From NCBI RefSeq assembly GCF_030028105.1, contig NC_092402.1, positions 8,499,444 through 8,563,443 on the forward strand: a DNA stretch of 64,000 nt, given 5' to 3'. Made by a program: the position numbers and the translations under genes. The DNA comes from Mobula birostris. Taxonomy: Eukaryota. The notes beneath the pieces are model-generated. The model saw only the letters and a program-made list of their open reading frames with translations. It searched no databases and was not told the origin of the DNA. Shown here one piece after another: positions 41,758-41,972 of this stretch (position 1 is the stretch's first letter; every line of letters begins with the position of its first letter).

Positions 41758-41972
41758 CATGCCCGGAGGAACTCGGCAGGCCACGCAGCATCTAGGCAAT
41801 GGGAGTAAACAGTCGACCTTTCGGGCCGAGACCCGTCTCCCGTCCTGATGAAGGGTCTCGGCCCGAAACGTCGACTGTTTACTCTTTTTTCCACAGATGC
41901 TGCCCGGCCTGCTGAGTTCCTCCGGCATTTTGTCTATGTTGCTGTGGATTTCCAGCATCTGCGGATTTTCTC
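41758..41972. mobile_element. Foldback Penelope-tail element with intact hammerhead core in the right arm
   Basis: Inverted arms of about 75 bp; gtc-CTGATGA-a-gggt ctcg gccc-GAAA-cgTC-gac at 41842-41875. Confidence 0.85.

Follow-up and report, generated by a model that had tools for sequence, protein, structure and literature searches.

Hammerhead ribozyme motifs beside putative HoxB genes of Mobula birostris are decaying ends of an abundant Penelope-like element

Hammerhead ribozyme motifs that lie beside Hox genes raise the question of whether they act on the transcripts of these genes or simply came there with a transposon. Such motifs occur in a stretch of 64,000 nucleotides from Mobula birostris (positions 8,499,444-8,563,443 of NC_092402.1), which is called the window here and in which all positions below are counted unless a locus is named. 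Three homeodomain genes lie within the window and seven further ones over 110 kb on its upstream side; judging by their order and by some of their residues, we take them to be the HoxB paralogues 10 to 1. On the same grounds, two genes of the window are presumably hoxb2 (21374-23158, plus strand, homeodomain E 9e-23) and hoxb1 (35663-38123, plus strand, homeodomain E 7e-23). A preliminary description of this DNA had listed nine copies of the motif and suggested that they are carried by a short repeat derived from Penelope, and that those near the Hox genes are self-cleaving elements which could cut read-through or antisense transcripts. All nine copies are in fact present, at 25838, 29592, 30730 and 32114 on the minus strand and at 30838, 33003, 41842, 60281 and 63267 on the plus strand. 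As for the claim that copies lie inside the Hox cluster, it holds for those in the gap between hoxb2 and hoxb1; the copy at 41842 is located outside, 3.7 kb 3' of the hoxb1 stop (38123). This copy does lie, as had been noticed, between two putative RARE-like motifs, one of the DR2 type (39771-39784, minus strand) and one of the DR5 type (44555-44571, plus strand), both obtained by a motif scan with a half-site consensus. The same kind of scan finds a further DR5-type motif at 11121-11137, upstream of the hoxb3 coding exons. Two other features were seen in the hoxb2-hoxb1 gap. At 24958-25085 (minus strand) there is a weak match to the Rfam family HOTAIRM1 region 2 (32.8 bits with a gathering threshold of 37, E 0.86), at a site paralogous to the position of HOTAIRM1 in HoxA; and 26059-26968 is made of about 13 tandem copies of a 70-bp unit, about 90% alike, which has a reverse-oriented match in a dispersed repeat at 63591-63717.

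The identity of the motif as a hammerhead is borne out by its core and its helices. The copy at 41842-41875 (plus strand), found by pattern and descriptor scans, reads GTC-CTGATGA-A-GGG-TCTCGG-CCC-GAAA-CG-TC-GAC: the 5' arm of stem I (41842-41844) is followed by CUGAUGA (41845-41851), an extra A (41852), stem II (41853-41864, 4 bp with a U-G pair and the loop CUCG), GAAA (41865-41868), then CG and UC with C17 at 41872, and the 3' arm of stem I (41873-41875), which pairs with 41842-41844. These are the hammerhead core CUGANGA...GAAA...UH, a helix II that includes G10.1-C11.1 and is preceded by one additional base between 9 and 10.1, and a loopless palindromic helix III, which appears as GAAA-CG-UC in the consensuses of all three subfamilies described below. 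Such a helix III, said in the preliminary description to call for a dimer, is what defines the minimal type I hammerhead (min-HHR) in the passages of PMC4209133 on this kind. A loose core pattern scanned over the window gave five matches where 1.09 were expected; three of them come from the Penelope-like element (29600-29624, minus strand; 41845-41869 and 63271-63295, plus strand), so that the cores at 29592, 41842 and 63267 are intact as claimed, and two (4147, 24796) are unrelated to the element. Helix I has 4-5 bp in the family as a whole, and when stems I and II were required together with the core, only two hits remained in the window, 41845 with 3 bp in stem I and 63271, which is the 63267 copy, with 5 bp; the 29592 copy failed with a stem I of only 2 bp. 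This stricter descriptor, a search that had been proposed as a check, exceeded chance with 14 hits in 501 kb of unselected DNA and window versus none in each of five shuffles; all 14 belong to the family of this element, and no other hammerhead family was found in the 501 kb. None of the 50 Rfam matches of the window at E<=10 is to a hammerhead family, which is not counter-evidence because the motif is without a helix III proper. Across subfamilies the helix II loop (41856-41861) is CUCG, UCCG or UUCG, presumably a YNMG-type tetraloop. Position 11.1 is C or U, and the young subfamily, B, therefore often has a G-U pair at 10.1-11.1.

The source of the motif can be read from two frames of the window, 59630-59974 and 62179-62733, which share 91% and 92% identity with a genomic frame of 1064 aa. 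The latter is a single ORF with a reverse transcriptase and, C-terminally, a GIY-YIG domain, where the Pfam matches to RVT_1 (E 4e-5) and GIY-YIG (E 8e-4) are both below the curated cut-offs, and a YIDD motif and a CX4CX2C linker (CKRNKCYTC) are seen; the two short frames of the window matched no relevant Pfam family, and their identity came from this longer genomic copy. According to passages of PMC8557442, the Neptune and Nematis clades are recognised by a CX2-5CxxC linker that lies between RT and EN. Judged by its linker, which Nematis shares, the source appears to be a Neptune-type EN+ Penelope-like element (PLE). Both in the window and in four of the four long-frame loci examined, one of which is flanked by inverted pLTRs, the hammerhead comes after the GIY-YIG stop, and an origin in a GIY-YIG PLE, as first proposed, is thereby upheld. 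No link from the tail to the ORF's start was found, the long-frame copies being 5'-truncated. Two 5'-truncated elements of the window (both on the plus strand) keep part of the ORF: 59701-60374, with the GIY-YIG end (91% to the C-terminus of the 1064-aa frame) and a pLTR whose hammerhead, at 60281, is mutated; and 62179-63365, with the thumb and linker (CX4CX2C), GIY-YIG (92%) and a pLTR whose hammerhead is intact (63268-63301, C17 at 63298, stem I 5 bp). When 103 of 105 aligned arms were sorted, two duplicates being dropped, they fell into subfamily A (44 arms, median 16.8% from the consensus), which includes all Hox-side copies and 41842, subfamily B (52 arms, 2.5%), which contains 60281 and 63267, and subfamily C (7 arms). 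The Hox-side copies belong to an older subfamily than the two ORF-linked ones. At another locus, a 682-aa frame (L104:4945-6990, plus strand) stands back to back with a PLE copy; by eye, we take it to be a CR1/L2-type LINE ORF2.

The nine copies are only a part of what the window holds. A profile built from seven window copies, whose matches to themselves are by construction, gives 16 arms, many of them in inverted pairs; among these is the inverted partner at 41763-41844 (minus strand), which had not been listed. The hoxb2-hoxb1 gap contains a subfamily A arm at 25787-25880 (minus strand, found by the profile, GAAA and stem I mutated), a head-to-head pair at 29536-29685, whose minus arm is the 29592 copy with intact core bases and sits within its own hairpin, a second pair at 30675-30919 (self-alignment and profile, both cores mutated), a third at 32063-32183 (profile, core mutated), and a single plus-strand arm at 32999-33075 (profile, core mutated), which runs into an N stretch. 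Further downstream, tail-only hairpins with no hammerhead are located at 51165-51285 (subfamily B) and 58514-58690, both by self-alignment and profile. No tandem arrays or head-to-tail units are found in the window, where copies are single or head to head. Head to head is also the commonest arrangement of close neighbours (17 of 35 pairs), and 11 of 30 anchored copies have an inverted arm on their 5' side within 1.5 kb.

Genome-wide counts place these copies in proportion. The 4.01 Gb genome has 44,381 exact motif matches, or one per 90 kb, with 0 for the reversed control; two of them are in the window, and a first look at the whole genome gave 143,984 candidates for the element. There are 16 arms in the 61 kb window, compared with 16 in 100 kb, 48 in 150 kb and 4 in 40 kb of unselected background DNA, an ordinary density which counts against a special placement at Hox. 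The cluster core of about 84 kb (L051:1597 to window position 25787) has 0 arms vs about 22 expected, and the hoxb2-hoxb1 gap has eight (five insertions) vs about three expected, where the arms are not independent and N stretches may hide more. The element is thus kept out of the cluster core and tolerated in the b2-b1 gap and the 3' flank. Arms were seen to reappear near the gene of paralogue 10 (L050) and in the hoxb2-hoxb1 gap. Nothing about the motif is peculiar to Hox; the genome has tens of thousands of such decaying transposon ends.

The insertion at 41842 merits a closer description. As a whole (41741-41973, the outer limits being inferred from a candidate target-site duplication) it is a head-to-head pair of 5'-truncated pLTR ends of subfamily A, as seen in a self-alignment of 41754-41933 at 81%. 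Downstream of the hammerhead runs the 3' part of the pLTR with the long optional 'tail' (41876-41973, plus strand, by reading of the sequence), and the inverted partner arm (41741-41837, minus strand, by self-alignment and profile) has the short 3' end and ends inside the core, so that it is without CUGANGA. The candidate duplication, chosen by eye, has its left copy at 41729-41740 and its right copy at 41974-41985, 11 of 12 identical, and is made uncertain by a second small local duplication. By computation, 41741-41973 folds to a hairpin of about 95 bp (-139.5 kcal/mol, z -16.7), and stems I and II of the hammerhead have pairing probabilities of 0.58-0.71 alone and 0.00 within 41735-41975; with the hammerhead buried in this hairpin, a hoxb1 read-through RNA would hide the motif. 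Within 8 kb there is no same-strand partner, the nearest plus arms being at 32999 and 51220. Two observations speak against purely neutral decay of this insertion. The 41842 arm is 7.6% diverged from the consensus of subfamily A, less than the median of 16.8%. Contigs of two other organisms (from two of the three larger runs) carry the unique left flank and go on for about 50 nt within the insertion, with an identity of about 94%, and those of one organism also span the right junction; no joint skipping the insertion is present among the joints listed, and the contigs break inside the repeat. As it is common to two other organisms, the insertion predates those splits, and is old enough for loss, yet kept. 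On this folding model the 41842 copy would be a decaying stump locked by its own inverted partner, for which Hox regulation is unlikely.

The question of selection has to be asked separately for the elements that give rise to copies and for the copies themselves. The consensuses of A, B and C agree at 30 of 34 hammerhead positions, including all 11 of the core, at 28 of 45 tail positions and at 3 of 25 upstream positions, which are poorly aligned; since the agreement is highest in the hammerhead, the master elements have kept the motif. The inserted copies decay neutrally. In 63,121 flank-anchored B copies, the 11 bases of the core are intact in 47,854 (75.8%) and an 11-mer of the tail used as control in 49,222 (78.0%), where the core has one or two CpG sites and the control has none and needs an indel-free spacer. 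Per site, in 30 flank-anchored copies with one polymorphic column omitted, non-CpG mismatches amount to 4/270 (1.5%) in the core, 10/450 (2.2%) in the rest of the hammerhead and 12/810 (1.5%) in the tail, and CpG mismatches to 6/60 (10%), 22/210 (10.5%) and 9/60 (15%), respectively. The preliminary description had said that core positions no better conserved than their flanks would speak against it, and this is essentially what these copies have. The core is somewhat better kept in 25 unselected A copies (mismatches 26/221 in the core, 58/373 in the other hammerhead positions, 190/1100 in the tail), and 18 B copies give 4/162, 17/265 and 31/774; mixed subfamilies, an A-rich core and the detection bias of the profile may explain the lower core rate in these profile sets. 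For domesticated host hammerheads of the Clec2/RECK type, named in a passage of PMC6155905, one looks for a core and stems conserved above background and for a monomer-competent fold, neither of which was found for the copies here.

With these results the possible readings of the Hox-side copies can be weighed. By far the most probable one is that the motif is the pLTR hammerhead of an abundant Neptune-type PLE, whose short copies are dead-on-arrival insertion products, unlikely to take part in Hox control. That they work as ribozymes, cutting read-through or antisense transcripts as dimers, is hardly to be believed. It could draw on the core bases intact at 41842 and 29592, on the place of 41842 between the DR2-like and DR5-like motifs, on an insertion common to two other organisms and on the abundant non-coding transcription of mouse Hox clusters reported in passages of PMC4510006. 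Against this stand the locking of 41842 in its hairpin, stems I of 3 and 2 bp in the two copies, the lack of a same-strand partner near 41842, and the number of intact cores, two among the seven to eight subfamily A arms, which is about what the mismatch rates predict (about 17% each). Published data point the same way, as far as the passages at hand go: min-HHRs were without activity as monomers and low in activity as dimers (PMC4209133), a vertebrate PLE hammerhead needs protein (PMC11167929), and eight of nine Xenopus dimers were uncleaved (10.64898/2026.07.22.740005). Taken with the neutral decay and the ordinary density, the hairpin lock and the broken stem I at 29592 speak against the view of the Hox-side copies as working self-cleaving elements, and a regulatory co-option of the 41842 copy in particular is exceedingly improbable. 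Somewhat less so, though still quite improbable, is an action of the insertion at the RNA level as a long dsRNA hairpin rather than as a ribozyme, through editing, Dicer or nuclear retention of crossing transcripts; the length and stability of the hairpin and the frequency of head-to-head pairs suit this idea, but there are tens of thousands of similar hairpins, and therefore any effect would be generic. It is very improbable, too, that the short copies are a non-autonomous family of SINE, MITE or retrozyme type with a master of its own. Many copies are indeed about 100-250 bp long and start at one place, and tandem PLE-derived retrozymes are known, among others from one chondrichthyan (passages of 10.64898/2026.07.22.740005); however, every copy examined has its own junctions, spacers and arm lengths, the lengths are continuous up into the ORF, and the window has no tandem array. 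The variable junctions largely refute a MITE or SINE master, and with it a separate SINE-like repeat.

More can be learned from where copies begin. Taking the first 90 of 64,951 tail-anchored subfamily B arms and measuring how far upstream each matches a long copy, we found that 19 end 47-51 nt from the anchor, that is, in the 5' arm of helix I, where 2.3 are expected (Poisson P 6e-12), a count which concerns subfamily B and in which some of the arms are pairs from one insertion. The rate of ends per base is 5.7% at the helix I 5' arm, 0.69% just 3' and 0.25% just 5' of it. None of the 90 ends exactly at the cleavage boundary (18), and one lies within 2 nt of it (at 16). By eye, four of the nine copies of the window (25838, 29592, 32114, 41842) likewise have their start at the helix I edge or only a few bases away from it. 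Among copies starting with AGTCC, 19 of 20 preceded by G and 19 of 20 preceded by A are genuine junctions, at which the element meets flanking DNA or an inverted arm and no upstream exon is common to them, and those with a detectable duplication have one to four extra bases ending in G before the element in four of five cases of the G set vs none of four in the A set. The genome counts of the base before AGTCC (G 2,120, A 1,310, C 2,526) give only a weak signal of an extra cap G, because C, which also gains from transitions, is highest, and because the counts of G and A are raised by purine-rich inverted arms. At the other end, tail-anchored copies fall into two classes of 3' ends about 37 nt apart. 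In a single case, at L172 (G000:C1:3967587-3968187), the GAAAC-GTC of one hammerhead runs straight into another CTGACGA, which makes a short direct duplication with the GTC in common.

These ends can be brought together with the decay of the copies as follows. In the master elements the hammerhead, kept by selection, would serve the element's own RNA, perhaps in protein-assisted or dimeric processing or as a fold binding the RNP. Reverse transcription probably begins in the pLTR tail, at either of two sites, as the two classes of 3' ends suggest; it would copy the tail with the uncut hammerhead and often run off where helix I has its 5' edge, which is most likely the RNA's capped 5' end. If both sides of the target cut served as primers, two pieces would be joined head to head, and the hairpins thus formed would lock the hammerhead in copies left to neutral decay. 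In its specific form, the idea that the stumps record a replication intermediate of Neptune-type PLEs, in which a capped RNA from the first base of helix I is primed at the tail and copied to run-off with the cap as an extra G, is possible, at a little under even chances. Much the same degree of tentativeness applies to two run-off cDNAs from both sides of one cut as the origin of the hairpins. That the hammerhead is uncut in the templates, and acts as a structural or RNP element at the 5' end or else as a gate taking RNA out of the pool to be copied, may likewise be held as a conjecture not far from evenly balanced. If all this is true, the stumps are a kind of strong-stop-like cDNA, and the hammerhead is not what makes the end of the template. 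The pile-up may come about otherwise, by release of the reverse transcriptase after a folded or protein-bound hammerhead, or from spliced RNA, rather than by a transcription start; we consider this less likely than not. In subfamilies A, B and C alike (window 63245-63270 and the consensuses), helix I is directly preceded by a pyrimidine tract and AG, the ends are spread over 5 nt, and the intron of Drosophila virilis Penelope ends at helix I, according to passages of PMC4209133 and, for the intron position, PMC2377424. But release should stall on the 3' side of the fold, and both the missing upstream exon and the G-ended extra bases of the G set speak for a start. Subfamily B also has a branch-point-like TACTAAC/TACTCAC, and the whole resembles a 3' splice site at the hammerhead. 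A spliced copy was not found among 40 junctions, and a model of spliced templates was given up for want of a common upstream exon in the junction copies.

As a Hox finding the motif is of no weight. Its genome can be regarded as a natural test of the PLE hammerhead, in which copies start at the 5' edge of helix I and not at the cleavage site; the difference argues that cleavage is not what produces the template's 5' end, and the pile-up names the exact base for a possible RNA start. Titles, abstract openings and passages of the literature gave no report of such a pile-up at helix I, which may nevertheless be in print.

One of the nearest systems for comparison is the Poseidon element PAc of Anolis (Frangieh et al. 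2024), of which passages of PMC11167929 state that its hammerhead needs the protein of the element in order to cleave, that RNA left uncut serves as the main template, that reverse transcription starts in vitro from two internal sites and so yields an optional tail, and that cutting and extension affect both DNA strands. PAc and the present element share the pLTR hammerhead, two classes of 3' ends or RT starts and, presumably, an uncut template and the nicking and extension of both strands, PAc showing no RNA ends at the cleavage site; in contrast, the linker here is the CX2-5CxxC of the Neptune type, no ORF start turned up inside the hammerhead, and the pile-up of 5' ends is not described in those passages. 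Inverted truncated pLTRs are a standard feature of PLEs in the relevant parts of Craig et al. 2021 (PMC8557442) and Arkhipova et al. 2013 (PMC3846280), and 5' truncation, the head-to-head inverted truncated copy and an optional tail of 30-40 bp at one end only are found here likewise, the inverted arms and the two 3' end classes being those counted above, whereas the insertions here are often just two arms of about 100 bp without ORF. Non-LTR retrozymes (Li et al. 2026, passages of 10.64898/2026.07.22.740005) also have type I hammerheads from PLE pLTRs, but are head-to-tail tandem arrays, and no head-to-tail units each with a hammerhead occur in the window. The ribozyme itself is of a kind described in 2014, the minimal type I hammerheads of metazoan PLEs (Cervera and de la Pena, PMC4209133; one of its two supplementary files has no shark or skate terms). 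In the passages concerned, the two agree in the absent helix III loop with the palindrome at 15.2-16.2, the extra base between 9 and 10.1, a helix I of 5 bp in intact copies, and the location in pLTRs, mostly as dispersed single motifs with some opposite-strand pairs. They differ in helix II, which has 4 bp here and 7-8 bp in Schistosoma, in the 10.1-11.1 pair, often G-U in the young subfamily here, and in number, at least 44,381 exact copies versus 4,000-9,000 in coelacanth and Xenopus. Altogether both the ribozyme and the shapes of its insertions are already known, and the motif here adds one more member to them.
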